Origin: Alphaproteobacteria bacterium | GTDB taxonomy: Bacteria; Pseudomonadota; Alphaproteobacteria; MPNO01 | Reading direction: 5' to 3' | DNA: 64,000 bases | NCBI GenBank assembly: GCA_965231875.1 | Contig: CBDDOM010000002.1 | Span: forward strand, 3,139,942 to 3,203,941 | Shown: one piece after another, positions 1,885-22,600 of the stretch | How positions within the stretch are numbered: the first letter of the stretch is position 1 | Layout: every line of letters begins with the position of its first letter | Notes under the pieces: generated by a model | Databases searched by the model: none | What the model saw: the letters and a program-made list of their open reading frames with translations, nothing else | Told to the model about the DNA's origin: nothing | Translations under genes and position numbers: made by a program

Positions 1885-2607
1885 ATGATCTTTGAATGCC
1901 GCCGCTACACCCTCCAGCCCGGCCGGATGGAGGAGTTCGTCGCGCTTCAGCACCGGCGCGGATTCGACGGGCCCAATGCCGGTTTCATCTCCCGGGTGAT
2001 CGGCTATTTCGAGACCGTCACCGGCACGCCCGAGCAGGTAATCCACCTCTATCGCTACGACAGCTACGAAGACTGGATCGAGAAGCTGCACGGGCTTTAC
2101 GCCATCCCCGAGCTCGGCTTCTACTTCACCGAGGCGCGGGCGATGGTGGACCGTCAGGAGACCGGTTTCTTCCAGCCCGCCCCCGTCGCCGAACTCTGCC
2201 CGCTATGGCACGGCGAGACAGACTGGCTGCCCGGACCCGGACAGGAGCGCTGGGATCTCCGGGAAATGCCCGACCTCGTGGTCGAGGAAACCCTTGAGGC
2301 GTTCAAGCCCGGCGGGCTCCCCGTCTACTGGCAGGCGATGACCGAATGCGGGCTGGAGGCCACGGCTCCGCTGCGCCGCGACACGATCGCCACATGGTCG
2401 TCGATGACCGGCCGGCTTCACGTCGTGGCGTCCTATCGCCTGTTCTCCTCTCTCACCGAACGCGAGGAACGCCGGCGGGAGGCCAGCGAGGGAACCGCGA
2501 TGGCCGCGTTCAACGAGGCGCTGAGACCCATCCTCCGCGAGCGTACGACGACCCTCCTCCGCCCGGTGCCCGTGCCGCAAATGAGCCCGCTCTTCCAGGG
2601 CGGCTGA
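1885..2607 (+). CDS. NIPSNAP family protein (two tandem NIPSNAP-like domains)
   Basis: 240-aa ORF 15 nt downstream of the TPP enzyme; sequence resemblance to the NIPSNAP dimeric alpha/beta-barrel family. Confidence 0.5.
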   Translation: MIFECRRYTLQPGRMEEFVALQHRRGFDGPNAGFISRVIGYFETVTGTPEQVIHLYRYDSYEDWIEKLHGLYAIPELGFYFTEARAMVDRQETGFFQPAPVAELCPLWHGETDWLPGPGQERWDLREMPDLVVEETLEAFKPGGLPVYWQAMTECGLEATAPLRRDTIATWSSMTGRLHVVASYRLFSSLTEREERRREASEGTAMAAFNEALRPILRERTTTLLRPVPVPQMSPLFQGG

Positions 2608-2618
2608 GGCGGCCATCG

Positions 2619-3911
2619 TTATCCCGAAGCGCAGCAGCGCGCCCCGACCCACTCCGCGACCGACAGCAGCAGATCGTCCGCGCCCCGCCGGGCGAGGAGC
2701 TGGATACCGACCGGCATGCCGTTTGGGCCGCGATGGGTGGGGAGCGTAATCGCCGGGACATGCAGCATGGTCCACAACGCCTGGAAGGCGGGATCTCCGG
2801 CATAGTCGAGCCCGACCGGAGCCTCGCCGTTTACGGCGGGGGCGAGTAGCGCGTCCCGGTTCTCGAACAGCCCGTCGAGAATGCGCCGGCATCGCTCCGT
2901 CCGCGCCAGCGCCGCGCGGTAATCGGCGTAAGGAACCGCCAGACCGTTGGCGACGGTTTTCTGCATTGCCGGGCTCAGCCGCTCCCGGTCGGTGCGCCAT
3001 TCATGCGCCATCGCGCGCGCCCGCTCGTAGTCGTTGATCGCCCGCCGTGCCTCGCTCAGCGCCTCGAAGCCAGAGGGAAGCCCGACTTCTTCCACCACGG
3101 CGCCCGCTCGACGGATCGCTTCGGCCGCGCCCTCAACCGCCGCCACAGTCTCCGGCTCCGCCAGATGCCAGAGCGGGGTACGGCAAACGCCGATCCTGGG
3201 CGTCCTCTCGAGCGGTGCGATCCCACCCGGCTCCCGGCCGGTGAGCACGTCGCGGACCAGCGCGACATCCTCCAGGTTGCGCGCGTGGAGGCCGATGGTA
3301 TCGAGGCTCTCGGCGGCGAACTTGATGCCGGCCCGGTTGAACGTACCGAAGCTCGGCTTGAACCCGACGATCCCGCAATAGGACGACGGGCGCAGCACCG
3401 ACCCGCCGGTCTGGGTGCCGAGTGCGACCGGGACCATGCCGTCGGCGACGCCCGCCGCCGATCCCTGGGACGAACCGCCCGGTGTCCGCGCCGGGTCGTG
3501 AGGGTTGGTCGTCGCGCCGGGATGGGTGCCGGCGAACTCGGCGGTGACGGTCTTGCCGAGGATGACCGCGCCCGCCGTGCGCAGGATCGCCACCGCCGCC
3601 GCGTCAGCCGCCGGGCGGTGCCCCGCATAGATCGGCGAGCCCATCTCCGTCGGCATGTCGGTCGTATCGAAGATGTCCTTGATCCCGACCGGCACGCCGT
3701 GCAGCGGACCCGCCGGCACCGGCGCGGCGTCACGGGCGCGCGCCTGGGCGAGCGCGAGGTCGGGATCCAAAAACGCCCACGCCTTTACCGTCTCCTCGCG
3801 CTCCGCGATGCGCGCGAGGCAGGCGTCGGCCACCGCCTCCGAGGTCGTTCGGCCTTCGGCGATCGCGCGCGCGGCCTCCGCGGCGCGCGGCGCGTCGAAC
3901 GGGCGGTTCAC
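2619..3911 (-). CDS. Amidase (amidase-signature family)
   Basis: GGSSQGSAAGVADGMVPVALGTQTGGSVLRPSSYCG amidase-signature motif; real start is GTG at 3911-3909 overlapping the stop of the upstream SDR gene (GTGA); the 547-aa M-start ORF is an out-of-frame extension. Confidence 0.8.
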   Translation of the reverse strand: MNRPFDAPRAAEAARAIAEGRTTSEAVADACLARIAEREETVKAWAFLDPDLALAQARARDAAPVPAGPLHGVPVGIKDIFDTTDMPTEMGSPIYAGHRPAADAAAVAILRTAGAVILGKTVTAEFAGTHPGATTNPHDPARTPGGSSQGSAAGVADGMVPVALGTQTGGSVLRPSSYCGIVGFKPSFGTFNRAGIKFAAESLDTIGLHARNLEDVALVRDVLTGREPGGIAPLERTPRIGVCRTPLWHLAEPETVAAVEGAAEAIRRAGAVVEEVGLPSGFEALSEARRAINDYERARAMAHEWRTDRERLSPAMQKTVANGLAVPYADYRAALARTERCRRILDGLFENRDALLAPAVNGEAPVGLDYAGDPAFQALWTMLHVPAITLPTHRGPNGMPVGIQLLARRGADDLLLSVAEWVGARCCASG

Positions 3912-7906: not shown

Positions 7907-7919
7907 GGCGGCTCCGGAA

Positions 7920-9728
7920 TCAGTAGACGCGGTCCTTGGGCGGTACCGCCTGGACCTCGTCGGTCATCGTGTTGGTGTGGACCGGCCGGTATTCCATGCG
8001 GGACCGGCCGTTCTCGTCGAGCCAGATCAGCGTGTGCTTCATCCAGTTCTCGTCGTCGCGTTCCGGGAAGTCCTCGCGCGCATGCGCGCCCCGGCTCTCC
8101 TCGCGATCCAGCGCCGCGTCGACGCTGACCACGGATTGCTCAAGCAGGTTGTCGAATTCGAGAGCCTCGACCAGGTCGGAATTCCAGATCATCGACCGGT
8201 CCGAGACCGATATGTCCGACCGGCCGTCCCAGACCTTCCCGAGCCTGTCCTTGCCCTCCGCGAGGATCTCGCCGGTGCGGAACACCGCGCAGTGGCTCTG
8301 CATGATCTGCTGCATTTCGAGGCGGAGCGCCGCGCAGGCGGTTCCGCCCTTGGCATGGCGGCGCGAATCGAACCGGCCCAGCGCCCGGTCCCCGGCATCG
8401 GCGGGGAGTGGCGGCTGGGACGCGCCGGGTTCCAGGATGTCGACGCAGCGATTGGCCGCCGCGCGGCCGAACACGACGAGGTCGAGCAACGAATTCGAGC
8501 CCAGCCGGTTGGCGCCGTGGACCGAGACGCAGGCCGCCTCGCCGATCGCCATCAGCCCCGGCACTGTCGCTTCCAGCGTGCCGTTGGCGGGCGACCGCGC
8601 CTCGCCGAGATGATTGGTCGGCACCCCGCCCATGTTGTAGTGGACGGTGGGCAGCACCGGCACCGGCTCGCGGGTGACGTCCACCCCGGCGAAGATCTTC
8701 GCGGTCTCCGAAATGCCCGGCAGGCGCTCGGCGATGATCTTGGCGTCGAGGTGTTCGATATGCAGGTGGATGTGGTCCTTGTTCTCGCCCACGCCGCGCC
8801 CTTCCCGCATCTCGACGGTCATCGCGCGCGACACCACGTCGCGCGAGGCGAGGTCCTTCACATTGGGCGCGTAGCGCTCCATGAAGCGCTCGCCCTCCGA
8901 GTTGGTGAGATAGCCGCCTTCGCCCCGCACCCCCTCGGTGATCAGGCAGCCCGCGCCGTAGATTCCGGTCGGGTGGAACTGGATGAACTCCATGTCTTCC
9001 AGCGGCAGCCCGGCCCTCAGCACCATCGCGTTGCCGTCGCCGGTCTGGGTATGCGCCCCGGTGCAGGCGAAATAGGACCGGCCGTAGCCTCCGGTCGCGA
9101 TCACCGTCATCTGCGCCTGGAAACGGTGGATGGTCCCGTCGTCGAGGTTCCACGCCATGACGCCGCGCACCGCGCCGGTCTCGTCGGTGAGCAGGTCGAT
9201 CGCGAAATACTCGATGAAGAATTCCGCGTCGTGGCGCAGAGATTGCTGGTAGAGGGTGTGCAGGATGGCATGCCCGGTGCGGTCGGCGGCGGCCGCGGTG
9301 CGCCTTGCCGGCGGACCCTCGCCAAAGCGGGTCGTCATGCCGCCGAACGGTCGCTGGTAGATCTTGCCTTCCGGGGTGCGCGAGAACGGCACCCCGTAAT
9401 GTTCGAGTTCGATCACCGCCGGGATCGCCTCGCGGCACATGTATTCGATCGCGTCCTGGTCGCCGAGCCAGTCCGCGCCCTTGACGGTGTCGTAGAAATG
9501 CCAGCGCCAGTCGTCCTCGCTCATATTGCCGAGCGCGGCGGAAATCCCGCCCTGGGCGGCGACGGTGTGGCTGCGGGTGGGGAAGACCTTGGTGATGCAG
9601 GCGGTCTTCAGCCCCTTGACCGCCATGCCGAAGGTCGCGCGCAGCCCGGCGCCGCCGGCGCCGATCACCACGACGTCGTAGCTGTGGTCGACGATTTCGT
9701 AAGCCCCGGTCACCGCTTCAGCCTCCAA
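7920..9728 (-). CDS. sdhA: Succinate dehydrogenase flavoprotein subunit
   Basis: [16 protein letters not shown] motif, SHTVAAQGG covalent-FAD histidine region; 602 aa. Confidence 0.95.
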
Positions 9729-10098
9729 GCGCGATCTTGAGGACCGAGAACGCGGCGCCTATCCCGCACGCGACCGCGCCGAACTTGATCGCCGTCACCA
9801 GGGTGAATTTGAGCCACTCGGTATGCACGTAGTCCTCGACCACCACCTGCATCCCCAGCTGGGCGTGATGGAACCCGGCGAGGATCAACAGAAGCATCGG
9901 GACCGCCGCCGCGGGGTTCCTCAGCCATTCCGTCACCGCTGCGTGGCCGGCGCCCGTCAGCACGATCAACGAGATCGCGAACCAGAGGATCAGCGGGACC
10001 AGGGCGATGGCGGTCAGGCGTTGCGCCCACCAATGGGCGGTCCCCTCCTTGGCCGAGCCGAGCCCTCGGACCCGGCCGAGCGGCGTCCGAAGGCTCAT
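9718..10098 (-). CDS. sdhD: Succinate dehydrogenase hydrophobic membrane anchor subunit
   Basis: 126-aa hydrophobic protein [30 protein letters not shown]...; internal start within ORF 9718..10533; overlaps sdhA start by 11 nt. Confidence 0.8.
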
Positions 10099-10523
10099 CG
10101 CAGCGCCCCCATCGATGCGTAGGCCAATACCCAGGCCAGCACGGTGAGCAATGCCGCCGAACCGACCGCCAGCCAGCCGGTCATCGATACGGTGTCGAGC
10201 TCGAATCCCCGACCCATATCCCAGAACAGATGCCGGATGCCGTTGCACAGGTGGTAGAACAGCGCGAAGGTCCAGCCGAACAGGAACAACCGCCCGAGGA
10301 ACGATCCCGCCGCCGCTTGCGCCGCGTCGAACGCGTCCTGGCCGGAAGCGGCGGCGGCGAGCCACCAGAGCAGCAGCAAGAGCCCTGCCGCCAGCACGAT
10401 CCCGGTCGCGCGGTGGGCGATCGACAGCACCGAGGTGATCTGCGGCCGGTAGACCTGCAAATGGGGCGACAGCGGCCTGTCCTGGTTGCTCATCGACGCT
10501 AACCCTGCTGGATAAGGCGGCAC
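10095..10523 (-). CDS. sdhC: Succinate dehydrogenase cytochrome b556 subunit
   Basis: RPLSPHLQVYRPQITSVLSIAHRATG signature; start could alternatively be Met at 10493. Confidence 0.8.
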   Translation of the reverse strand: MPPYPAGLASMSNQDRPLSPHLQVYRPQITSVLSIAHRATGIVLAAGLLLLLWWLAAAASGQDAFDAAQAAAGSFLGRLFLFGWTFALFYHLCNGIRHLFWDMGRGFELDTVSMTGWLAVGSAALLTVLAWVLAYASMGALR

Positions 10524-10622
10524 GAGGCCTCAAGCCGAACGGCGGCCCGGTTTAGACCGGGACCGGGGGCAAGTCAAATTGGCTCCCATCGCTACGATTG
10601 CGCGGTCGCTATCTCCCAACCT

Positions 10623-10651
10623 ATTGACGCGGAACCGGACCGGTCGTACAT
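10623..10651 (+). promoter_or_regulatory. Putative sigma70-type promoter for the tacA-tacT module (TTGACG-17nt-TACATA)
   Basis: ttgacg at 10623-10628, 17-nt spacer, tacata at 10646-10651, about 40 nt upstream of the antitoxin ATG. Confidence 0.3.
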
Positions 10652-10689
10652 ACGTCGTCGTTACATCAATACCGGAGACGAGGCCTTTC

Positions 10690-10974
10690 ATGCCGGTTCC
10701 CGAGCGAGTCCTGCAAAGTCAGACCATCAATCTGCGCGCGTCGATCAAGCAGAAATCGCTGATCGACCGCGCGGCGAAGCGCCTTGGCAAGTCACGCACC
10801 GAGTTCGTCCTCGACACGATGCGCGAAGCGTCCGAGAACGTGCTGCTCGACCAGCGCCTGTTTATCCTCGACGAAGCCGCGTTCGATGCGTTCGAAGCCA
10901 TGCTCGATGAGCCTGCCCAGCCGAGCGAAAGCTTGCGCCGGACCCTCACGACACCCCCGCCCTGGAGCCGATGA
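10690..10974 (+). CDS. tacA: DUF1778-family (RHH) antitoxin of a GNAT-toxin TA system
   Basis: 94-aa protein MPVPERVLQSQTINLRASIKQKSLIDRAAKRLGKSRTEFVLD; typical DUF1778 N-terminus; followed 10 nt later by GNAT gene. Confidence 0.75.
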   Translation: MPVPERVLQSQTINLRASIKQKSLIDRAAKRLGKSRTEFVLDTMREASENVLLDQRLFILDEAAFDAFEAMLDEPAQPSESLRRTLTTPPPWSR

Positions 10975-10984
10975 TCGCCCGGGC

Positions 10985-11482
10985 ATGAAGCTGACCGCTC
11001 CCGAGCCCATCGCCGACCGTCACGTACTTGCCGGTTTCGAAAGCGGCCAACCGACTCTGGACAGTTGGCTCGCGGCACGTGCTCTCAAGAACGAGCGGGA
11101 CGGGGCTTCGCGGACCTATGTCGTCTGCGACGACGGCGCCGTCTCCGCCTATTACTGCCTTGCCGCGGGTTCGGTGCAGCACCGGGACGTGCCCGGCAGG
11201 ATCAGGCGCAACATGCCCGATCCGATTCCGGTGATGCTGATGGGCCGTCTCGCCGTCGCCCGGTCCCATCAGGGCAGGGGGATTGCGCGCGGTCTCGTAC
11301 GAGATGCCGTTCTACGCACTTTGAAAGCTGCCGAGATCGCGGGGATCAGGGCGCTGCTCGTTCACGCGCTCGACGAAGATGCGGCAAGCTTCTACCGCCA
11401 TCTGGGCTTTCTGGAATCGCCGGTCGATCCCCTCGTACTTGCCCTTCCCTTGGCCGCCGCGCGCAAGGCGCTAGAGCCGTGA
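10985..11482 (+). CDS. tacT: GNAT-family N-acetyltransferase toxin (TacT/AtaT-like)
   Basis: 165 aa; acetyl-CoA motif VARSHQGRGIARGLVRDAV; immediately downstream of DUF1778 gene. Confidence 0.75.
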   Translation: MKLTAPEPIADRHVLAGFESGQPTLDSWLAARALKNERDGASRTYVVCDDGAVSAYYCLAAGSVQHRDVPGRIRRNMPDPIPVMLMGRLAVARSHQGRGIARGLVRDAVLRTLKAAEIAGIRALLVHALDEDAASFYRHLGFLESPVDPLVLALPLAAARKALEP

Positions 11483-11533
11483 GCGACGGTGGCTTGGTGC
11501 GTCGCACAAAATAACCATTGGTATTGCTTTCCT

Positions 11534-12421
11534 TCACACCGCCTCCCGCTCCAGCGCCGCGATCCCCTCCGCCAGCGCCAGGGTGCGTTCGGCTTCCTCG
11601 ACGTGGAGGGCCTCGATCAGCTTGCCGTCGACCAGGGTTACGCCCTTGCCCGCGGCCGCGGCCTCGCCCCATGCGGCGGAGATGCGGCGCGCCCATTCGA
11701 TGTCCCCCTCGGACGGGCCGAACACCGCGTTGGCGACGGCGATGGTCTTGGGGTGCAGCAGCGACTTGCCGTCGAAGCCGAAGGACCGCCCCTGACGGCA
11801 GGCGCGCTCGAAGCCTTCGTCGTCCGACAGGTCGAAATGGGGGGCGTCCATCACCGCGAGCCCGGCCTCGCGCGCCGCCAGCACGCAGAGTCCGATGCCG
11901 GTGAGCAGCGGCAGCCGGTCGGGCGCGTGCAGGTCCGCCCGGAGCGCTTTCGATAGATCGGCCGTGCCGAGTGTCAGCGCCGCCATGCGCGGGTGCGCCC
12001 TGGCGATGAGGCGTGCATCCAGGATGCCCCCGGGCGTTTCCAGCATGCACCAGATGCCCATGCCGCCCGGCGCCCCCGCCGCTTCCAGGGCGGCGGCCGC
12101 GTGCGTTACCGTCGCCGCGTCTTCGACCTTCGGCAGCATTGCCGCGTCGGCGCCGCTTTTCGCCACCGCTGCAAGGTCGTCTTCGAACCATGGGGTGCCG
12201 ATGCCGTTGATGCGCACCACGATCTCGCGCGCGCCGTACCCGCCCCCGGCGAGGAAGGAGAGAACGCGGTTGCGCGCCTCGACCTTGGCCTCGGGCAGCA
12301 CGCCGTCCTCGAGATCCATGATCAGGACATCGGCCGCGAGGCTCCGCCCCTTTTCCAGCGCGCGCGCGTTGGCGCCCGGCATGTAGAGCGCGCTGCGCCT
12401 CGGGCGGATGCGGCGGGTCAC
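11534..12421 (-). CDS. HpcH/HpaI aldolase / citrate lyase beta-like (CitE family, malyl-CoA/citryl-CoA lyase-like)
   Basis: 295 aa; RSALYMPGANARALEK...DLEDGV N-terminus typical of the CitE/HpcH family. Confidence 0.75.
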   Translation of the reverse strand: MTRRIRPRRSALYMPGANARALEKGRSLAADVLIMDLEDGVLPEAKVEARNRVLSFLAGGGYGAREIVVRINGIGTPWFEDDLAAVAKSGADAAMLPKVEDAATVTHAAAALEAAGAPGGMGIWCMLETPGGILDARLIARAHPRMAALTLGTADLSKALRADLHAPDRLPLLTGIGLCVLAAREAGLAVMDAPHFDLSDDEGFERACRQGRSFGFDGKSLLHPKTIAVANAVFGPSEGDIEWARRISAAWGEAAAAGKGVTLVDGKLIEALHVEEAERTLALAEGIAALEREAV

Positions 12422-12426
12422 CGGAG

Positions 12427-13191
12427 CTACCCGCCGGCCGCCGAGAGCGCTTCGATGCGCCGCTCGTATTCCGCCGCCTCGCCGTCCCGGCCGGTGTTAC
12501 GGAGGACATCGGCGAGAATCCGCATCGAATCGACCTGCTCCGGATCGAGTTCGAGGGACCGCCGCGCGCTCGCCTCGGCGAGATCGTAGTCTTCCCTCGC
12601 GGCGTGGATACCGCTCAGGAGGTTGAACAAATCCGCGTCGGTATCGTCCGCCGCGATTGCCGCCGTCGCGCTTTCGAGCGCTTCGTCATGGCGCCCCAGC
12701 GTGAGCAGGAGAGTGCCGAGGCCCCCGTGGGCCTGGCTCGACTCCGGGTCCAGCGCGACCGCGCACCGGCCGGCATCCACCGCCGCCTCGGTCTCGTCGA
12801 GCCGGTTGAGCGCCGCGCTCAGGCCGAGCCAATATTCCGCGTTGTCGGGCTTGAGCCGGATCGCCGCCCAGAAGGTTTCGCGCGCGTCCTCCATCCGCCC
12901 GGCGATCCCGAGCAATATGGCGCGGGCACCGTGAAACCTGGCGACCGAGGAGTCCGCCGCCACCGCGTCATCGAGAAAATCGAGCGCGGCCTCGAATTCC
13001 CCCTGCCCGAAAGCGATGGTCCCCCTGAGATATTTCGCTTCGCCGTTTCCGGGATCGAGGGCCTCGATCCGGTCCAGCACGCGCTCGGCCTTGCGGACCC
13101 GGTCTTCGAGATAGTAGTCGAGGGCCCGTTCGAGCAACTCGTAAACATCCGTCATGCCCGACCTTATAGGTTCGCGCTCTGAAGGCGGCAA
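12427..13191 (-). CDS. Tetratricopeptide-repeat protein
   Basis: Repeated A..Y..G......A...F motifs across 254 aa; start could be the downstream Met (MTDVY). Confidence 0.65.
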   Translation of the reverse strand: MPPSEREPIRSGMTDVYELLERALDYYLEDRVRKAERVLDRIEALDPGNGEAKYLRGTIAFGQGEFEAALDFLDDAVAADSSVARFHGARAILLGIAGRMEDARETFWAAIRLKPDNAEYWLGLSAALNRLDETEAAVDAGRCAVALDPESSQAHGGLGTLLLTLGRHDEALESATAAIAADDTDADLFNLLSGIHAAREDYDLAEASARRSLELDPEQVDSMRILADVLRNTGRDGEAAEYERRIEALSAAGG

Positions 13192-15611: not shown

Positions 15612-15768
15612 GTCATGCCCGGACTTGTTCCACTGCTGTCCGGTTCAGGCGTTCGGGGCAGGCTCCACGCCCATGAGCGAGACCGTCGCCGCCTCCTTGT
15701 TGTCACCCCGGACTTGTTCCGGGATCCAGGGCAGCCGGGTGAGGGCGGTGCCTGTGGCCTTGGACCCC
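15612..15768. repeat. REP-B family repeat copy (gtcatgcccggacttgttcc... / gtcaccccggacttgttccggg)
   Basis: Shares >20-nt blocks with copies at 31225, 36047, 37671 and 43683. Confidence 0.5.
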
Positions 15769-15950
15769 ATCTGTTTTAGATGGAACCGCTTGCACCGTTC
15801 CCTTCCGTCATGGTCGGCGGAGGCCGACCATCCACGAGTTTTTCTTTGTCGGCGGAACAACAGAAAACAAAACGTGGATGGTCGGCCTCCGCCGACCATG
15901 ACGCGGGAGGGGCAGGGACAGCAGCGGTTCCGCCTGAAACGGACAGGCCC
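15769..15950. repeat. MITE-like long imperfect palindrome (about 170 bp), copy 1
   Basis: cgtcatggtcggcggaggccgaccatccacg ... cgtggatggtcggcctccgccgaccatgacg inverted arms with about 30-nt loop; near-identical to 22410..22600. Confidence 0.65.
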
Positions 15951-17233
15951 TAGAAGCTGTAGGTGACGTTGAGGACGACGTACCCGTCGCGCCGGGTATC
16001 GTGGATCGCGTCTTTCTCGTCGACCTTGAGCATGACCGCCCCTTCCACTGTCGCGGTCCAGCTGTCCGACAAATCCCGCTTTGCTTCGAACCCCATCAGG
16101 TATGTCGAATAATCCGTGTCGGCGATGACGCTCGCCACGAACTCGGTGTTCTCGACGTCGTTCAGCGCGAGGCGGGATGCGAAGAAGACGTCGTTCTGGT
16201 ACCGGTTGGTCGACCGGCGCCCGCGCTCGTCGTAGCTCCACTCGCCGAGCAGGCTGATATCGGCCTCCGAATCGAAGACCCCGCTGAACGTGTACTCGAC
16301 CCCGGCGGCGAAGGCGGCGTAGTCCTCTTCCTTGCCCGCGGGGTTGCGCATGTCCGCCCGGTTTCTCGCCCCTTCGCGGCGGATGGCCTCGAGCTTGATC
16401 AGCCATGATTCGATGGTGAGCTGGGCGTCGAGCCCGTACTGGCGGATCTGCGCGTAGTGCGGGACCAGGGTCAACGATCCGCCATGGAATTCCGGATCGA
16501 AAGACGGCTCGCGGCTGGTGCCGTCGAACACGCTCACGCCCAAATCGAGCGGCCCGATGCTGCGGCTGTAGCGAGCGGCGAGGTCGACATGCCACTCCTC
16601 GGCCGCGCTCTCGTAGGAAACCCGCCTCTGGTCGAACGGGATCCGGGTCCGGAGGCGGCCCTTGCGCCCCGGCAGCGTCCGCTCGCGGTGAAGCGGCATG
16701 GCGAAGAACTCCAGCACGCCCCAGTCCGCCGACCAGGTGAGGTGGGCCATGAGCTGGCCCATCCGGCTCTCTTCGTTCGGGCGGTCGGTCAGGTCGACCT
16801 GGTTGACGATGTTGACCAAATGATGGAATTCGGTGACGCCCCAGAACACCCGGTCGACGCCGACCCGCGCCTCCCACTCGCCCTCGCCGAGCTCGCCGAA
16901 CAACAGCAGATAGGCCTCGCGCAGGTCGGCGTTGGTGCGGTGGGGATCCGCGCTGTCGTAGCGGTAATGCGGCGTGAGCGTGAAGCTTCCGCCGTCCTCG
17001 TGTTCGAGATAGAGCGTGGGTTCCGCGGTAAAGCCCAGGCTTCCGTCGCGCTGGCCCCGATGGGCCGCTTCGGTCGGGAACCAGCGGCCTTCCATGGTGA
17101 GGCGCCCCGAGAACTCGGCCTCGATCTTGCCGGTATCGGCGGCGGCGATCCAGGCGAAGACGGTGCAGGCGGCGCCCAGCGCCGCCCCGGCAGCGGCAGC
17201 GCGATGCCGGCGAAAGATGCGTGTCAGCGGCAT
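15950..17233 (-). CDS. Putative outer-membrane beta-barrel protein (secreted; unknown family)
   Basis: Signal-peptide-like N-terminus MPLTRIFRRHRAAAAGAALGAACTVFAWIAAA; C-terminal ...VLNVTYSF aromatic terminus; start is Met74 of ORF 15950..17452. Confidence 0.45.
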   Translation of the reverse strand: MPLTRIFRRHRAAAAGAALGAACTVFAWIAAADTGKIEAEFSGRLTMEGRWFPTEAAHRGQRDGSLGFTAEPTLYLEHEDGGSFTLTPHYRYDSADPHRTNADLREAYLLLFGELGEGEWEARVGVDRVFWGVTEFHHLVNIVNQVDLTDRPNEESRMGQLMAHLTWSADWGVLEFFAMPLHRERTLPGRKGRLRTRIPFDQRRVSYESAAEEWHVDLAARYSRSIGPLDLGVSVFDGTSREPSFDPEFHGGSLTLVPHYAQIRQYGLDAQLTIESWLIKLEAIRREGARNRADMRNPAGKEEDYAAFAAGVEYTFSGVFDSEADISLLGEWSYDERGRRSTNRYQNDVFFASRLALNDVENTEFVASVIADTDYSTYLMGFEAKRDLSDSWTATVEGAVMLKVDEKDAIHDTRRDGYVVLNVTYSF

Positions 17234-17509
17234 GCCATCGGTGTCCCGAATTTCGGCGCACTCGTGGGCGGAATCATAGTGGCCTCCGCCCCGCGTGGCA
17301 CGCGTGGGGTGCGATGCGGTAATCCAGACACGCACGCGGGTTGGTCTTACGGTACTCTTCCAAAGGCTACACCCTTGGCTTGTGCTCCCGATCCACCATG
17401 GACCGATGCTGTAGCACGGAGTATTTGAAGCGCGAATTCTGCGTGAGACCATTGTCCAGGCATGCCTGACGCGGTTATCGGCACTATGGATCCTGGGCAG
17501 GAGGGTAGG

Positions 17510-18871
17510 ATGTTAAAGAGACTGAAACTGACGAATTTCAAGGCATGGCGGGAAGCCGATCTGCGATTCGGGAAGGTGACCGGATTCTTCGGCACCAACA
17601 GCGCCGGCAAGAGCAGCCTTCTTCAACTCCTGCTCTTGCTCAAGCAGACCAAGAATGCGACGGACCGCGGCCTGGTGCTCGATTTCGGCGGGCCCTCCGA
17701 CTTCGTAAACCTCGGGACCTATAGCGATGTCGTGCACCGGCATGACGAGGAGACGAGAATAAGCTGGCTCCTCGACTGGTCTCTCCCAGAGACGATGAGG
17801 ATCGACCAGCGCGTGGCATCCCCCAGTCCCCTTGAATTGAAAGGAAATTCTCTTCAGACGCGATGTGAGGTCGGCCTGCGGCTCGAACGCCCTTGGCCGT
17901 ACGAGTTGGCATACAGGTTCGATGGGGTGGACTTCATTTTACAATCTCAGGTCGGTTCAGAGAACAAATTCAAGCTGGACACAACTGCCTCCGATTTCAG
18001 GTTCATACGCAATCAAGGTCGAGCGTGGCCGCTTTCCCACCCAATCAAGACGCACCTGTTCCCGAACGAGATGAGGGGTTTCTACCAGAACGCCGACTTT
18101 CTGCGCAATTTCGAGTTGGAATATGAGCGTTTCATGGACTCAATTTACTACCTGGGGCCTCTCCGGGAATATCCGCAGCGGGAATATGGCTGGGCAGGTT
18201 CCAGCCCCGGCGATGTCGGACAGCGCGGAGAACGCACGGTAGACGCAATCCTCGCCGCCAGTCGGGACGGACAGTCGAGGAGCCTCGGATATCGGATGCG
18301 CAGAAAAAAGTTTCAGGAGATGATCGCATATTGGCTCAGCGAGCTAGGGCTGATTCACGAGTTTCAAATCGAGGAAATTGTGAAAGGAACGAACCTGTAT
18401 CGGGCATTGGTGAAAACCACCCGGTCAAGTCCCCAAACCCTCTTGACCGATGTCGGGTTCGGCGTTTCGCAGGTTCTGCCGGCGCTGGTTCTTCTCTACT
18501 ACGTTCCAGAGGGTTCCACGGTGCTCATGGAACAGCCCGAGATCCATCTTCATCCTGCGGTGCAGAGCGGATTGGCCGATGTCATGCTGAATGTGGCGGA
18601 GGCCCGGAATGTGCAGATCATCGTGGAAAGTCACAGCGAGCACCTGATGCGGCGCCTGCAGCGCCGGGTGGCGGAGGAAGGGGCGTCCGCCGAGGACGTC
18701 AAGTTATATTTCGTTTCGACCAGCGGAAGCAGAGCGCAAGCGTCCGATCTCTGCCTGAATGAGTGGGGGGAAATCGAGAACTGGCCGGACAATTTTTTCG
18801 GCGACGAGATGGGAGAAATCGCGGCGATCACCAAGGCGTCTTTGAGGAGGAAAATAGGACATTCTCGATGA
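17510..18871 (+). CDS. SMC/OLD-like ABC ATPase (AAA_15/AAA_21-type), no nuclease domain
   Basis: MLKRLKLTNFKAW N-terminus; Walker A GTNSAGKSS; C-terminal LMEQPEIHLHP (Walker B/D-loop-like) and ESHSEHLMRRL (H-loop-like); perfect SD aggaggg 6 nt upstream of ATG 17510; lower GC than surroundings. Confidence 0.75.
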   Translation: MLKRLKLTNFKAWREADLRFGKVTGFFGTNSAGKSSLLQLLLLLKQTKNATDRGLVLDFGGPSDFVNLGTYSDVVHRHDEETRISWLLDWSLPETMRIDQRVASPSPLELKGNSLQTRCEVGLRLERPWPYELAYRFDGVDFILQSQVGSENKFKLDTTASDFRFIRNQGRAWPLSHPIKTHLFPNEMRGFYQNADFLRNFELEYERFMDSIYYLGPLREYPQREYGWAGSSPGDVGQRGERTVDAILAASRDGQSRSLGYRMRRKKFQEMIAYWLSELGLIHEFQIEEIVKGTNLYRALVKTTRSSPQTLLTDVGFGVSQVLPALVLLYYVPEGSTVLMEQPEIHLHPAVQSGLADVMLNVAEARNVQIIVESHSEHLMRRLQRRVAEEGASAEDVKLYFVSTSGSRAQASDLCLNEWGEIENWPDNFFGDEMGEIAAITKASLRRKIGHSR

Positions 18872-19344
18872 ACGCGTTTGTCGTGGACACCAATGTTGCG
18901 ATCGTTGCCAATGGCGGTAGCAGGACGCACGCCGATGAGCGATGCCAACTGACCTGTGTGGAAAGGTTGGAGTATCTGGTCAATCGCGGAACCATAGCGG
19001 TCGACGAAACAGGGCTAATGTTTGCCGAATATGCCGATCACTTGTCTTGGTCAGGCGCACCTGGTGTGGGGGATATGTTTTTCAAGCACTTGGTCGACAA
19101 TCAATATCTGGTCCATCGCGTTCGAAGAGTCCCGGTGACTCCGTGCGATGACGACCGGAAAGGATTTGAAGAACTGCCCTGGAACGCGTTCGATCCGTCG
19201 GACCGGAAGTTCCTGGCCGTCGCCGTTGTCGCGGATGCGGCGGTTCTCAACGCGACCGACAGCGACTGGGAGGAACAGGCGGCGCTGATCGCGGAATTGG
19301 GCGTCGAGATCGATCAGCTCTGTCCGCAGCACGCCAGCAAGTGA
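18868..19344 (+). CDS. Small PIN-like protein translationally coupled to the ATPase
   Basis: ATGA start/stop overlap with ATPase; N-terminal FVVDTNVAIV strand with conserved Asp; acidic residues at about 7/47/94/130 spaced like PIN catalytic residues; 158 aa. Confidence 0.45.
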   Translation: MNAFVVDTNVAIVANGGSRTHADERCQLTCVERLEYLVNRGTIAVDETGLMFAEYADHLSWSGAPGVGDMFFKHLVDNQYLVHRVRRVPVTPCDDDRKGFEELPWNAFDPSDRKFLAVAVVADAAVLNATDSDWEEQAALIAELGVEIDQLCPQHASK

Positions 19345-19381
19345 CGTTGGCCGAGCGGACATAGACGACGGTGCAGGGGCC

Positions 19382-20038
19382 TTGAACTGGAAGTATCCCA
19401 GAACGCCCTACTGGCCCCATTCCCCGGCTGTCGGCCGGGAGGACGGGGTGCATCCGGACCCCGGCCGTTTCGCGGGTGTGCCGGTTGTGGTGACGGAGAA
19501 GCTGGACGGCAGCAACATTCTCTTGCACGACGGCAAGGTTTACGGACGCAGCGTGTCCGCCCCCTCCGAAGCGAAATGGACGGCGATGGTGAAGAAACAC
19601 CATGCCTGGAAAGTGACCGGACCCGATGTCTACCTGTATGGCGAGGACATCTACGGGGTGCACAGCATCGTCTATGCGCCGGTGCCGGAAGACCGGACAT
19701 TCTACGCTTTCGCGCTCCGCGACGGGACCGGAGCCTTCGCCCCGTTCGCCGATGTGGAGGGCTATGCGGGGCGGCATGCCATCCCTGTCGTGCCCGTCCT
19801 GTTCAGGGGAATTGTCCGCTCCGTTGCCGAACTGCGGGCATTCCTAGAGCGCGCTCACGCCGAGCCCTCCATCCTCGGCGGCGAGCGCGAGGGTGTCGTG
19901 GTGCGGCGGGCGGCCGGGTTCCCGGAGGCCGAGTTCCCGCTCAACGTTTGCAAGAGCGTTCGCGCCGGCCATGTGCAGAGCGACGAACATTGGACGAGGA
20001 ACTGGAAGCCCTGCAAGCTCGCGCCGGGCCATGCGTAG
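19382..20038 (+). CDS. Minimal ATP-dependent RNA ligase family protein (nucleotidyltransferase domain only)
   Basis: Motif I TEKLDGSN (KxDG), motif III YLYGEDIYG, motif IV EGVVVRR, motif V CKSVR; TTG start; 218 aa, no OB domain. Confidence 0.65.
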   Translation: MNWKYPRTPYWPHSPAVGREDGVHPDPGRFAGVPVVVTEKLDGSNILLHDGKVYGRSVSAPSEAKWTAMVKKHHAWKVTGPDVYLYGEDIYGVHSIVYAPVPEDRTFYAFALRDGTGAFAPFADVEGYAGRHAIPVVPVLFRGIVRSVAELRAFLERAHAEPSILGGEREGVVVRRAAGFPEAEFPLNVCKSVRAGHVQSDEHWTRNWKPCKLAPGHA

Positions 20039-20113
20039 CGGGCGGGTCTTTCCGTGGGGAACCGCTACGCGGTGCTGCCGGATCGTTCGGGCATCCATCG
20101 GAGGAGCCAAGCC

Positions 20114-20542
20114 ATGAAAATCACCCCGGTCCATCCCGGCACGCCGCTGCCGGAGCACAACATGCCGTTCGTGCCGGCGTTCTCGGTCGAGGGCGGGCGG
20201 ACGCTCTGGCTCGCCGGGATGGGGCCGGTGCCGATCTACCACAGGCACCCGCACGATCCTGTCGACGAAGTGCAATGGTACCAGGGCGGGTTCCGCGTCC
20301 AGTGCGAGCGCACTTTCGAGAACATCGAGCGCATCCTCGCCGCCGCCGGCGCCGATCTCACCAACATCGTGAAGATGACCCAGTACCTCACCCACGTGAT
20401 GCGCGACCAGGACACGCTCAACGAGATCACCTGGGAGCTGTTCGGGCGCGAGCGCATGCCGCCCCGCACGCTGCTCGGCGTGCCGACACTGGCGCATGAT
20501 GACATGCTGCTGGAGATCGACGTGGTGGCGCAGGTTCCCTAG
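20114..20542 (+). CDS. RidA/YjgF/L-PSP family protein
   Basis: 142 aa; start MKITPVHPG inside ORF 20054..20542; typical RidA length and C-terminal half. Confidence 0.7.
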   Translation: MKITPVHPGTPLPEHNMPFVPAFSVEGGRTLWLAGMGPVPIYHRHPHDPVDEVQWYQGGFRVQCERTFENIERILAAAGADLTNIVKMTQYLTHVMRDQDTLNEITWELFGRERMPPRTLLGVPTLAHDDMLLEIDVVAQVP

Positions 20543-20603
20543 CGCCGGGTCGCGAAATGTCGTCTAATCCGGCGCGAGTTCGAGAAGACCGGCGGGAGTA
20601 GCC

Positions 20604-21431
20604 ATGGCGATCACCGTAAGCCCGCTTTCCGAGGCGATCGGGGCCCGGATCGAGGGCGTCGATTTGAGCAGCGAGCTCGATACCGGCACCTTCGATACGA
20701 TCAAGAACGCGCTGTTCGAGAACGCCATCGTCGTCGTCCCCCGCCAGACCCTCGACGAGGACGACCAGGAACGGTTCTGCCGCTATTTCGGCGAGCTCGA
20801 GATGGTCCGCTCCGGCCAGGCGCCCAGCGACCATCCGGCGGTGCTGATGATCACCAATGTCACGGACTCCGGCCGCCCGACCGCGCTCGAGGACGGCGAG
20901 ATGATGTTCCATTACGACCAGTGCTACTACGAGAACCCGGCGCTCGGCTCGACGCTCTACGCCATCGAGGTGCCGGACGAGGGCGGCAACACGCTATTCG
21001 CCAATTGCCGGCTTGCCTACGAGGCGCTCGATGACGGCTGGAAAGCGCGGCTCGACGGTCTCCGGGCGCTGCATTACTACGACTACAAGCGCGATCCCAC
21101 GCTGCGGCCGTCCGAGATCAACCCGGACGCGCCGCAATGGGTCCATCCCGTGATCCGCACCCACCCCGAGACCGGGCGCAAGGCGATCTACGTCAACCGG
21201 CTGATGACGCTCTGGATCGAGGGCGTCGACCGCGACGAGAGCGACGGGATCCTCGACTACCTGTTCGCCCATATCGAGAAGCCGGAATTCGTCTACGAGC
21301 ACGAGTGGACGGTGGGCGAGCTGATCATGTGGGACAATCGCTGCTCGGCGCACGCGCGCACCTGGTTCTCGCCCGAGAAGCGGCGGATGATGCGCCGGGT
21401 GACGGTGCGCGATCCCCACCCGGTCGTCTGA
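20604..21431 (+). CDS. TauD/TfdA-family Fe(II)/2-oxoglutarate-dependent dioxygenase
   Basis: 275 aa; HYDQCYY...H..D iron motif and C-terminal WDNRCSAHAR signature. Confidence 0.85.
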   Translation: MAITVSPLSEAIGARIEGVDLSSELDTGTFDTIKNALFENAIVVVPRQTLDEDDQERFCRYFGELEMVRSGQAPSDHPAVLMITNVTDSGRPTALEDGEMMFHYDQCYYENPALGSTLYAIEVPDEGGNTLFANCRLAYEALDDGWKARLDGLRALHYYDYKRDPTLRPSEINPDAPQWVHPVIRTHPETGRKAIYVNRLMTLWIEGVDRDESDGILDYLFAHIEKPEFVYEHEWTVGELIMWDNRCSAHARTWFSPEKRRMMRRVTVRDPHPVV

Positions 21432-21439
21432 GGCCGGAC

Positions 21440-22405
21440 ATGGGCTCCATCGACATCGAGAAGGCGGAACGGCCGACGCGCGGGCGCGTCGGCGGCACCG
21501 ACAAGGACCGCGCGGCCCGCTTCCGCGCCCGCTTCCCGCCGTCGGCGAAGAGAAGCCTCTATATCCGCGACAAGATCCTGCTGCCGGCGCGCGAGCCGCC
21601 GGTCAATCCCGAGCGCAGCGAGATCGGCGACCCCGCCGAGGCCGCGCGCGAGATCCGCGACACGGCGCGCGAGATGGGGGCCGACGCGGTCGGCATCGCC
21701 GAGTACGACCGCCGCTTCGCCTTCACCCAGGCCGGCGATCCGAAACACTCCGCCGTCGTCGTCTACGGGATCGCGATGTCCTACGACAACATGGCCGATA
21801 TCGGCCCGCGCTCGCAGGAGGAGGTGCACCGGGTTTATCACGCGCTCGACGATATCGGGGTCAGGCTCGCCCACCAGATCGCGGCGTTCGGCTACAGCGC
21901 CACGATGCAGCCCAACGAGGGCGACATCCCGATGCCGGCGCTCGCCTGGCTCGCCGGTCTCGGCGAGCTCGGCAAGCACGGCTCGCTGATCTCGCCCGAG
22001 CTCGGTTCCTCATTCCGGCTCGGCGCGGTGACCACCGACATGCCGCTCGAGGTCGACGGGCCGGCGGATTTCGGAATCGACGAGGTGTGCGCGAAATGCG
22101 GCGTGTGCACCCGCTTCTGCCCGGGCGATGCGATCAAGCCGGACAAGCGGACGGTCAACGGGATCGAGCGCTGGCATGTCGACACAGCGGCCTGCGAGCC
22201 GTGGTTCCACAAGCTCTACGGCTGCAAGATCTGCCTGATGGTCTGCCCGCTCAACAGCCGGGGCGTGTTCGGCGAGGATTTCAAGCGCGCCTCGCGCGTC
22301 CTGGTCGATGCCAGGGACGCCGACGGGATGCTGCGGCTGATCGAGGAGCGGACGGACATGCATTACGAGGATTTCGACGACGCGCCGAAAACCGGCGAGG
22401 ACTAG
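21440..22405 (+). CDS. 4Fe-4S di-cluster protein, QueG/reductive-dehalogenase-like
   Basis: CAKCGVCTRFCPGDAI and CKICLMVCPLN ferredoxin motifs preceded by GSSFRLGAVTTDMPLEVDGP, laid out as in epoxyqueuosine reductase. Confidence 0.5.
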   Translation: MGSIDIEKAERPTRGRVGGTDKDRAARFRARFPPSAKRSLYIRDKILLPAREPPVNPERSEIGDPAEAAREIRDTAREMGADAVGIAEYDRRFAFTQAGDPKHSAVVVYGIAMSYDNMADIGPRSQEEVHRVYHALDDIGVRLAHQIAAFGYSATMQPNEGDIPMPALAWLAGLGELGKHGSLISPELGSSFRLGAVTTDMPLEVDGPADFGIDEVCAKCGVCTRFCPGDAIKPDKRTVNGIERWHVDTAACEPWFHKLYGCKICLMVCPLNSRGVFGEDFKRASRVLVDARDADGMLRLIEERTDMHYEDFDDAPKTGED

Positions 22406-22409
22406 AGCC

Positions 22410-22600
22410 TGTCCGTCTTGGTTGGAAACGCTCGCACCGTTTCCTTCCGTCATGGTCGGCGGAGGCCGACCATCCACGAGTTTTTCTTTGTCAGCGGAAC
22501 AACAAAAAACAAAACGTGGATGGTCGGCCTCCGCCGACCATGACGTAGGAGAGACAGGGACAGCAGCGCTTCTATCTAAAACGGATACGCTCTAGCCCGG
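22410..22600. repeat. MITE-like long imperfect palindrome, copy 2
   Basis: Core 22449-22543 nearly identical (2-3 mismatches) to 15808-15902; flanks also similar. Confidence 0.65.

Follow-up and report, generated by a model that had tools for sequence, protein, structure and literature searches.

In the present study, we analysed a 64,000-nucleotide (nt) stretch of contig CBDDOM010000002.1 from the Alphaproteobacteria bacterium assembly GCA_965231875.1 (hereafter the window), in which a low-G+C gene for an ABC ATPase and an overlapping gene for a PIN-like protein had been picked out, from the letters alone, as an unnamed and uncharacterised two-gene defence module. We consider, with a probability of about 0.6, that positions 17510-20038 encode a three-gene anti-phage cassette of the HEC-03 family, in which the ATPase would serve as a switch, the PIN protein as a ribonuclease (RNase) and the product of a third, downstream gene as a resealing RNA ligase. 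We are highly confident that the cassette belongs to the HEC-03 family, and an anti-phage defence function is probable. The ATPase-PIN pair is an instance of a catalogued, experimentally supported system, and PADLOC would label it HEC-03. The new part is that in most lineages sampled this pair travels with an RNA ligase, its motifs intact, which the definitions of the system and the only experiments on it omitted.

Assignment to the HEC-03 family

The ATPase matched the PADLOC model PDLC04148 (HEC-03) with an expectation value (E) of 1.9e-202 and 671 bits, residues 1-450 aligning with profile positions 1-454 of 458. The PIN protein matched PDLC04147, also HEC-03, with E = 1.5e-66, its residues 4-158 aligning with positions 3-157 of 159. 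HEC-03 is one of nine 'Hma-embedded candidates' of a 2024 preprint by Payne et al and was described as an ABC ATPase with a VapC-like PIN protein; in E. coli the system lowered plaquing by orders of magnitude for at least two phages, neither gene being dispensable, and the expressing strains were plated without isopropyl-beta-D-thiogalactopyranoside (IPTG) owing to apparent toxicity (bioRxiv 10.1101/2024.01.29.577857). The proteins tested were those of Pseudomonas cichorii ATCC 10857 (WP_025259138.1 and WP_025259137.1). The window ATPase is 56% identical to the tested ATPase over the 399 residues available, and the window PIN protein is 54% identical to WP_025259137.1. The original prediction of a defence-type ATPase and nuclease, parallel to PARIS, Septu and AbiL, is supported by the HEC-03 match; its description of the pair as uncharacterised has to be given up, since PADLOC holds it as HEC-03 and a 54-56% identical homologue, both genes of which are needed, protects E. 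coli. As a point of nomenclature, PADLOC-DB v2 gives the name HEC-03A to the PIN protein (159 positions) and HEC-03B to the ATPase (458), and Payne et al use the two letters the opposite way.

The gene arrangement is that of HEC-03, the two genes being adjacent and on one strand with the ATPase gene first. The P. cichorii system shares with the window the same two protein families, gene order and overlapping genes, the ATPase motifs GTNSxGKSS, MEQPEIHLHP and SHSEH and, in the PIN protein, an acidic position 7 together with E54, D112 and D131. It differs in having two genes, in lying inside an Hma (helicase-methylase-ATPase) system and in belonging to a ligase-less clade, whereas the window cassette stands alone among metabolic genes. 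Embedding in an Hma system, which is absent here, was the route by which HEC-03 was discovered and is no requirement of the PADLOC models. The two-gene composition does not hold in the window, where a conserved RNA ligase gene, lying outside both the published and the PADLOC definitions, is added; we regard the cassette as an extended form that is still in the family.

The ATPase

Pfam gave matches of the ATPase only to AAA_15 (E = 2.6e-23), AAA_21 (3.8e-19) and DUF3696 (1.5e-8) and showed no Toprim, HNH or helicase domain, as had been predicted. The Walker A motif GTNSAGKSS (residues 28-36, with K34), the EQPEIHLHP motif (341-349) and the SHSEH motif (374-378, with H375 of the H-loop) are invariant or nearly so in 68 homologues, in which the signature-like motif GFGVSQ is invariant. 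At the Walker B position, all 68 have M-E341-Q342-P-E (E341-Q342 lies at window positions 18530-18535). If this is aligned to the usual D-E-P-E, E-Q would replace D-E, with glutamine in the place of the catalytic glutamate, which suggests that ATP is bound and that its hydrolysis is slow or absent. Classic E-to-Q mutants of ABC ATPases, which are deficient in hydrolysis, show a similar dyad.

Outside HEC-03, the closest named ATPase is NsnB of the Menshen system (NsnABC). Among the PADLOC ATPase models it came next (E = 1.5e-62), followed by PDC-M55A (7.2e-51). NsnB likewise combines AAA_15 with DUF3696 and has GxG for SGG; its Walker B motif is non-canonical as well, with E-N where the window protein has E-Q, and a PIN-like fold is again found in its partner. 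In NsnB, which carries the E-N dyad and the GxG motif, the paired DUF3696 tails are predicted to clamp the PIN-like domain of the partner; this partner, NsnC, has an inactive PIN-like domain without catalytic residues, fused to a C-terminal toxin domain (PMC12065111). In view of the E-Q dyad and these parallels, we read the window ATPase as a putative ATP-binding switch and not as a motor. In contrast to NsnC, the window PIN protein is free-standing, has no domain beyond its 158 residues and keeps all of its acidic residues, and Pfam found no gene for the NsnA (ParB/DUF262) sensor among the ORFs (open reading frames) beside the cassette.

The matches to other defence ATPases were further down the scale: the AriA model reached at best 90 bits (E = 4.7e-26, best stretch residues 296-379), GajA about 1e-10 and PtuA 2e-5. 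Membership of PARIS, Gabija, Septu, AbiL or MADS was rejected, as the ATPase matches are far weaker and mostly partial and the partner genes are absent.

The PIN nuclease

The family of the second protein comprises 1514 protein clusters, and no Pfam domain is recorded in any of the 120 listed. The Pfam PIN match of the window protein reached 17.5 bits against a curated cut-off of 23.6. Across the family, weak E-values were obtained for PIN_3 in 23 of 32 members (best E = 2.5e-4) and for PIN in 21 of 32, and the only other recurring Pfam family was SecA_SW (3/32, E no better than 0.071). An acidic residue, D or E, occupies position 7 throughout: most members, including that of the window, have D, and E is found in the P. 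cichorii protein that was tested and at one other locus (L053). E54, D112 and D131, and also D46, D69 and D109, are invariant in 13 sequences that range from 100% down to 30% identity. The acidic residues are spaced by 47, 58 and 19 residues, a pattern that we take to resemble that of VapC. A Foldseek search with the AlphaFold model returned mostly VapC/PIN structures, with VapC probabilities of 0.9-0.98 and weak E-values. From the conserved acidic residues, the VapC structure matches and the weak family-wide Pfam matches, which bear out the PIN-like assignment made earlier, we conclude that the protein is in all likelihood a catalytically competent PIN nuclease.

With VapBC the protein would share the modelled PIN fold, a VapC-like acidic active site, its best structural matches and the likely targets, tRNA or rRNA. 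It differs from VapBC in that there is no VapB-type DNA-binding antitoxin and no family of small antitoxin ORFs, the partner being an ABC ATPase of 453 residues. The classes of RNA targeted by VapC toxins are summarised in a passage of PMC5499597.

The RNA ligase gene and its conservation

A third ORF starts 37 nt past the PIN gene, and its product matched PF09414 with E = 6.5e-18 and 65.9 bits against a cut-off of 27. The protein consists of the nucleotidyltransferase domain alone and carries E39-K40-L-D42-G43 (motif I), G87-E88-D89, FxAF (107-110), E170-G171-x-V-x-R175 and C190-K191-S-V-R194. Alignments of 33 and 36 sequences show little or no variation in motifs I, III, IIIa, IV and V, and an N-terminal motif, KYPxTPYWPxSP, is family-specific and nearly invariant. 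When the ligase was modelled with AlphaFold and searched by structure, RNA ligases made up the top matches and almost every other match listed; single-sequence and profile searches against solved structures gave no real match. Rnl2 of phage T4, archaeal Rnl3 and Naegleria Rnl5 account for these structure matches and share PF09414 and motifs I, III, IIIa, IV and V, while the bare domain of 218 residues in the window is smaller than the matched solved ligases (233-392 residues). The motifs point to a putative RNA strand-joining activity, presumably on 3'-OH and 5'-phosphate ends.

In the locus survey, the PIN alignment was scanned against one genome per species, which gave 80 loci, almost all in metagenome-assembled genomes (MAGs). 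These include Alpha- and Gammaproteobacteria, Latescibacterota, Acidobacteriota, Binatia, Thermodesulfobacteriota, Spirochaetia, Gemmatimonadota, Rhodothermales and Cyanobacteria. The ATPase gene stands ahead of the PIN gene in every one of the 80 loci, and nearly all show a 4-nt or 1-nt overlap between the two. Behind the PIN gene, 75 loci have a ligase homologue (62-86% identity; 71 complete, 2 cut by a contig end and 2 degraded), and 5 have none. The intact copies lie between -4 and about +65 nt from the PIN gene, with one at -25, and in 13 loci the ligase gene overlaps the PIN stop by 4 nt. When three lineages were compared, including Latescibacterota and a Gammaproteobacteria genome, the flanks were unrelated and the shared block was exactly ATPase-PIN-ligase. 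Furthermore, a search begun from the ligase recovered the same triad.

The three proteins also diverge together, with Mantel correlations (n = 68, p = 0.001) of 0.69 for ATPase-PIN, 0.81 for ATPase-ligase and 0.70 for PIN-ligase; conservation is highest in the ligase, with a mean pairwise distance of 0.31 against 0.34 and 0.39. In distant plasmid copies, the ligase follows the pair in four of the five examined (Aeromonas, Azotobacter, Tistrella and Rhodococcus), in the same three-gene order and annotated as 'RNA ligase family protein', at identities to the window proteins of 31-35% (PIN), 38-45% (ATPase) and 27% (ligase). The two plasmid copies scanned, those of Aeromonas and Rhodococcus, still match the HEC-03 models. 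Judged from gene order and divergence across these genomes, the ligase belongs to the cassette unit in this clade, and the earlier picture of a two-gene cassette has to be widened to take in the conserved gene directly downstream.

Two side observations concern these sequences. The only ligase cluster of 99% identity, P0121, is 196 residues long, covers 90% of the query and comes from the same contig as the 100%-identical PIN cluster P0001. Compared with the ORF from TTG it lacks 22 residues, presumably from the N-terminus (window 19382-19447), which would drop the KYPxTPYWPxSP motif; the P0121 annotation is probably truncated. On the conjugative plasmid of Aeromonas veronii (L083), an AbiEii/AbiGii-family toxin pair, Hok/Gef, a metallophosphoesterase and a 'GTPase-associated system' GASH gene lie beside the triad (2036-3865 and 7910-12465), and the region looks like a plasmid-borne defence and addiction island.

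Loss and possible replacement of the ligase

The P. cichorii-type genes lie in integrase/AlpA islands, those of Pseudomonas relatives beside Pf prophage genes and those of Burkholderia relatives beside an integrase fragment; no ligase gene was found in any of these three groups. Clustering of the concatenated ATPase and PIN proteins placed these loci, with ligase-less Methylococcales and cyanobacterial loci, in one cluster of 10, and the ligase is carried by the main clusters as well as by the distant plasmid clusters. By parsimony, this distribution indicates that the ligase is ancestral and the validated two-gene HEC-03 derived. The closest relatives of the window cassette (L002-L081) are almost all uncultured MAGs, and the ligase-less clade is that of cultured Pseudomonas and Burkholderia; culture bias may explain the lack of experimental attention to the three-gene form.

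In a few relatives the position after the PIN gene is occupied by something else. On an Acinetobacter soli plasmid (L082:6538-7296) it holds an HNH endonuclease gene (Pfam HNH_2; PADLOC 'HNH', E = 1.9e-22), in a copy that sits among helicase and N-6 DNA methylase genes, and at L053:10592-11611 a NOV_C/DUF3883-type nuclease-like protein stands in the place of the ligase. Different genes may be exchangeable at the third position; alternatively, both may simply be unrelated defence-island neighbours. At two other loci a gene of the cassette is broken. A frameshifted ligase remnant (L042:10512-10776) follows intact ATPase and PIN genes, and at L101:4380-4860 the PIN gene is split into ORFs of 67 and 94 amino acids, next to intact ATPase and ligase genes; an assembly error is possible in both.

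Proposed mechanism and alternative explanations

In the mechanism that we propose, the ATPase would be both sensor and switch, with ATP bound and hydrolysis slow or nil, as the intact Walker A motif and the E-Q dyad suggest. By analogy with the predicted NsnB-NsnC contact of Menshen and with PARIS and Septu, its DUF3696 tail would hold the PIN protein in an inactive state that only a phage cue ends. The freed PIN protein would then cut an RNA of translation, most likely tRNA or rRNA as VapC does, and phage growth would stop. The co-transcribed ligase would reseal the PIN cuts at their 3'-OH/5'-phosphate ends, so that leaky cleavage stays harmless before infection or the cell recovers after it. 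Metal-dependent PIN-like nucleases are expected to yield 3'-OH and 5'-phosphate ends, and ATP-dependent Rnl-type ligases join such ends; since the two coincide, the ligase could reseal the cuts directly.

The part of the ligase in this scheme is the least firm. That it is a repair enzyme or antidote we put at slightly under even odds. More tentative still is the wider proposal that HEC-03 ancestrally cuts and then reseals RNA, its own Rnl-type ligase rejoining the PIN breaks, and that the two-gene form is a derived one that has lost this safety catch. If the ligase does undo PIN damage, HEC-03 would be a case of host-encoded defence that includes RNA repair of its own. The response would be reversible or host-safe and not purely suicidal, which bears on how abortive-infection-type systems avoid self-harm. 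Phage T4 repairs the RNA damage done by the PrrC anticodon nuclease, and the proposed role of the host ligase would mirror this repair.

The same role was apparently proposed in 2016: a passage of Matelska et al 2017 (PMC5499597) that summarises Burroughs and Aravind 2016 (NAR 44:8525) tells of predicted conflict operons with PIN_3, an ATPase, HNH and an RNA ligase, in which the ligase would neutralise the toxicity of the nuclease. As far as this summary goes, the 'neutralising ligase' idea seems not to be new. In the literature we found no direct description of an ATPase-PIN-RNA ligase defence triad and no paper tying the 2016 prediction to HEC-03. If the proposed role is true, this prediction, apparently of that year and made by comparative genomics, would gain an experimental footing. 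The window cassette resembles the predicted operons in its PIN_3-like nuclease, ATPase and RNA ligase, HNH being found only in the Acinetobacter plasmid copy. It differs in having no HNH gene in the window, and, going by the summary in PMC5499597, the protein families may be the same.

Several points weigh against the reading of the cassette as switch, RNase and resealing ligase. The sole tested system protects although it has no ligase, so that the ligase is dispensable for defence. An entire clade has lost the gene, one locus (L042) keeps it only in decayed form, and another (L022) is without it; since the pair stays intact in these losses, the ligase is no indispensable antitoxin. The HNH gene in L082 and the NOV_C gene in L053 could mean that the third position is a slot for effectors and not for repair. 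The RNA target and the end chemistry are assumed from PIN and VapC enzymes in general, and a Mantel correlation reflects co-inheritance and is no proof of shared function. The AlphaFold models are of low to moderate confidence for the PIN protein (pLDDT, the predicted local distance difference test, 64) and poor for the ligase (pLDDT 54). In addition, the cassette lies here among metabolic genes, with no defence gene adjoining and no recognisable defence island. The toxicity of the ligase-less HEC-03 upon induction is compatible with a buffering role of the ligase and proves nothing.

The same facts can be arranged differently. The ligase-like protein might be a second effector, which harms phage or cell by adenylylating or misjoining nucleic-acid ends, with the PIN protein mainly an adaptor coupling the ATPase to the product of the third gene. 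NsnB-type ATPases are predicted to bind adaptor PIN-like domains (PMC12065111), the ligase is the best conserved of the three proteins, and some relatives have a nuclease gene, HNH or NOV_C, after the PIN gene. However, those genes may be mere defence-island neighbours, the acidic active-site residues of the PIN protein are kept family-wide, unlike those of NsnC, and the tested system, which has no third gene, protects and is toxic when induced. We also know of no Rnl-type ligase that acts as a toxin, and we consider a second effector unlikely. It is improbable, too, that the functional unit is the published two-gene HEC-03 and the ligase a passenger with an unrelated role in RNA metabolism. 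PADLOC and Payne et al do define HEC-03 by two genes, and the ligase gene has a G+C of 0.656 against 0.56-0.57 and a 37-nt gap instead of an overlap. Against this, the offset in G+C between ligase and pair is family-wide (0.62 against 0.56) and so no mark of separate origin, and adjacency is kept in 71 of the 80 loci, in many phyla, between unrelated flanks and down to 27% ligase identity on plasmids. The 13 ligase starts that overlap the PIN stop, the co-divergence of the three proteins (r = 0.70-0.81 for the ligase with its two partners) and the recovery of the triad from the ligase side speak for one unit as well.

A function outside immunity has to be weighed against the anti-phage cassette on other evidence. 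The genes could form a stress-responsive module for cutting and rejoining RNA, or an addiction module of toxin-antitoxin type kept by selfish spread, acting in either case on host tRNA or rRNA under control of the ATPase. RNA processing and repair systems likewise pair an endonuclease with a ligase, the cassette stands alone among metabolic genes in several genomes, the conjugative plasmid copies lie beside AbiEii-family and Hok/Gef toxin genes, and carriage by phages is nearly absent, with one distant relative among 2.9 million viral contigs. We nevertheless give this explanation a low probability, as the closest tested homologue confers phage resistance, no antitoxin-like DNA-binding gene was found at the cassette among the window ORFs by Pfam, and defence accounts at least equally well for the patchy distribution, the low G+C and the association with mobile elements. 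What speaks for a housekeeping DNA-repair ATPase of the RecF/RecN/SMC kind with an accessory protein is a set of weak N-terminal matches to SMC_N, RecF and Rad50. These span about 45 residues of the P-loop and reach 18-24 bits against curated cut-offs of 40-1087, and a RecF/RecN/Rad50 identity was rejected on that account. Since, moreover, the genes are not conserved with their flanks in related genomes and their composition is foreign, we regard a housekeeping role as extremely improbable. Nor is the pair part of a conserved core at native G+C; it occurs patchily across phyla between unrelated flanks.

Comparison with other ATPase-nuclease systems

PARIS (AriA/AriB), Septu (PtuA/PtuB), Gabija and OLD resemble the window cassette in combining an ABC ATPase as sensor or scaffold with a nuclease effector. 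Their effectors are Toprim or HNH proteins and not PIN proteins, and no Toprim protein (AriB, DUF4435) was found at the cassette with Pfam and the PADLOC models. To our knowledge, none of these four systems has a ligase gene. AriB and P2 OLD are reported to cleave tRNA.

Gene coordinates, start signals and composition

The features of the region are collected in Table 1. The ORFs, the overlap, the ribosome-binding site and the motifs named in the original prediction, including FVVDTNVAIV, are all present. The GGAGG sequence stands 5 nt ahead of the ATPase ATG, and the ATPase ORF has an alternative in-frame ATG further upstream, at 17462. The PIN gene start overlaps the ATPase stop codon (TGA) in ATGA (18868-18871), and the two genes are translationally coupled, as the original prediction held. 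A site of AGGAG type recurs across related loci 5-10 nt ahead of the ATPase ATG, and apart from it no conserved motif was found in these loci 5' of the ATPase gene. Promoter and terminator scans were at chance level and identified no promoter, and Rfam and tRNA scans of the window found nothing.

Table 1. Positions of the cassette genes and adjoining features in the window
Feature	Positions	Strand	Remarks
Divergent intergenic region, 5' of the cassette	17234-17509	.	Contains ribosome-binding site GGAGG, 17500-17504
HEC-03-type ABC ATPase gene	17510-18871	+	453 amino acids, begins MLKRLKL; AAA_15/AAA_21 core and C-terminal DUF3696 tail
HEC-03-type PIN-like nuclease gene	18868-19344	+	158 amino acids, MNAFVVDTNVAIV...; candidate catalytic residues D7, E54, D112, D131
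RNA-ligase-like nucleotidyltransferase gene, third gene of the cassette	19382-20038	+	218 amino acids from TTG; Pfam PF09414
RidA-like gene (PF01042)	20054-20542		Downstream of the cassette; Pfam
TauD-like dioxygenase gene	20604-21431		Downstream of the cassette; Pfam

The lower G+C of the pair, judged by eye in the original prediction, was confirmed by counting: 0.562 in the ATPase gene and 0.574 in the PIN gene against 0.656-0.73 in the flanking genes. The G+C at third codon positions (GC3) agrees, with 0.69 and 0.67 against 0.85-0.92. The ligase gene, at 0.656, lies above the pair. In other genomes low G+C was seen in 64 of 65 loci, the offset averaging -10 points in the pair and -4 in the ligase gene (65 loci), and the family means are 0.56 for the pair and 0.62 for the ligase gene. 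Low G+C is a trait of the whole family, so that alone it is no sign of recent acquisition here; as proof of recent transfer it was rejected, the offset recurring in 64 of the 65 loci.

Genomic neighbourhood

The neighbours of the cassette in the window are a DUF1302-like outer-membrane gene, RidA, TauD and a ferredoxin-type gene. The divergent intergenic site next to an outer-membrane gene was observed as predicted, and the DUF1302 match of this minus-strand gene is weak (E = 4.7e-4, below the Pfam cut-off). The gene would end at 17233 if its start is Met74 of the ORF, where a signal-peptide-like sequence begins. On the other side, the RidA-like, TauD-like and ferredoxin-type genes at 20054-22405 have native G+C (0.66-0.69) and a GC3 of about 0.9 and are host genes outside the cassette. 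RidA, which bears the Pfam name 'endoribonuclease L-PSP', and TauD were considered as cassette members and rejected, their synteny being limited to the four closest relatives (L001-L003 and L069). Since RidA-TauD is common to these relatives, and the upstream outer-membrane gene also to L069 (Defluviicoccus sp.), the insertion of the cassette would be older than these lineages.

A 191-nt element occurs in two copies of 87% identity, at 15763-15953 and 22405-22595. Each stands where two convergent genes end, and the cassette falls within the 6.6-kb block that the two copies enclose. As borders of an island or of a miniature inverted-repeat transposable element (MITE) they were rejected, since there are only two copies, the sites are between convergent genes, and the housekeeping genes enclosed are syntenic in L069. 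The 64-kb window has only these two copies, 91 related loci have none, and Rfam gave no match. Each copy contains an almost perfect hairpin whose arms are about 44 nt long (131 nt folded, minimum free energy -91 kcal/mol, z = -12), and the element could be a MITE-like or repetitive extragenic palindromic (REP)-like element or a bidirectional terminator.

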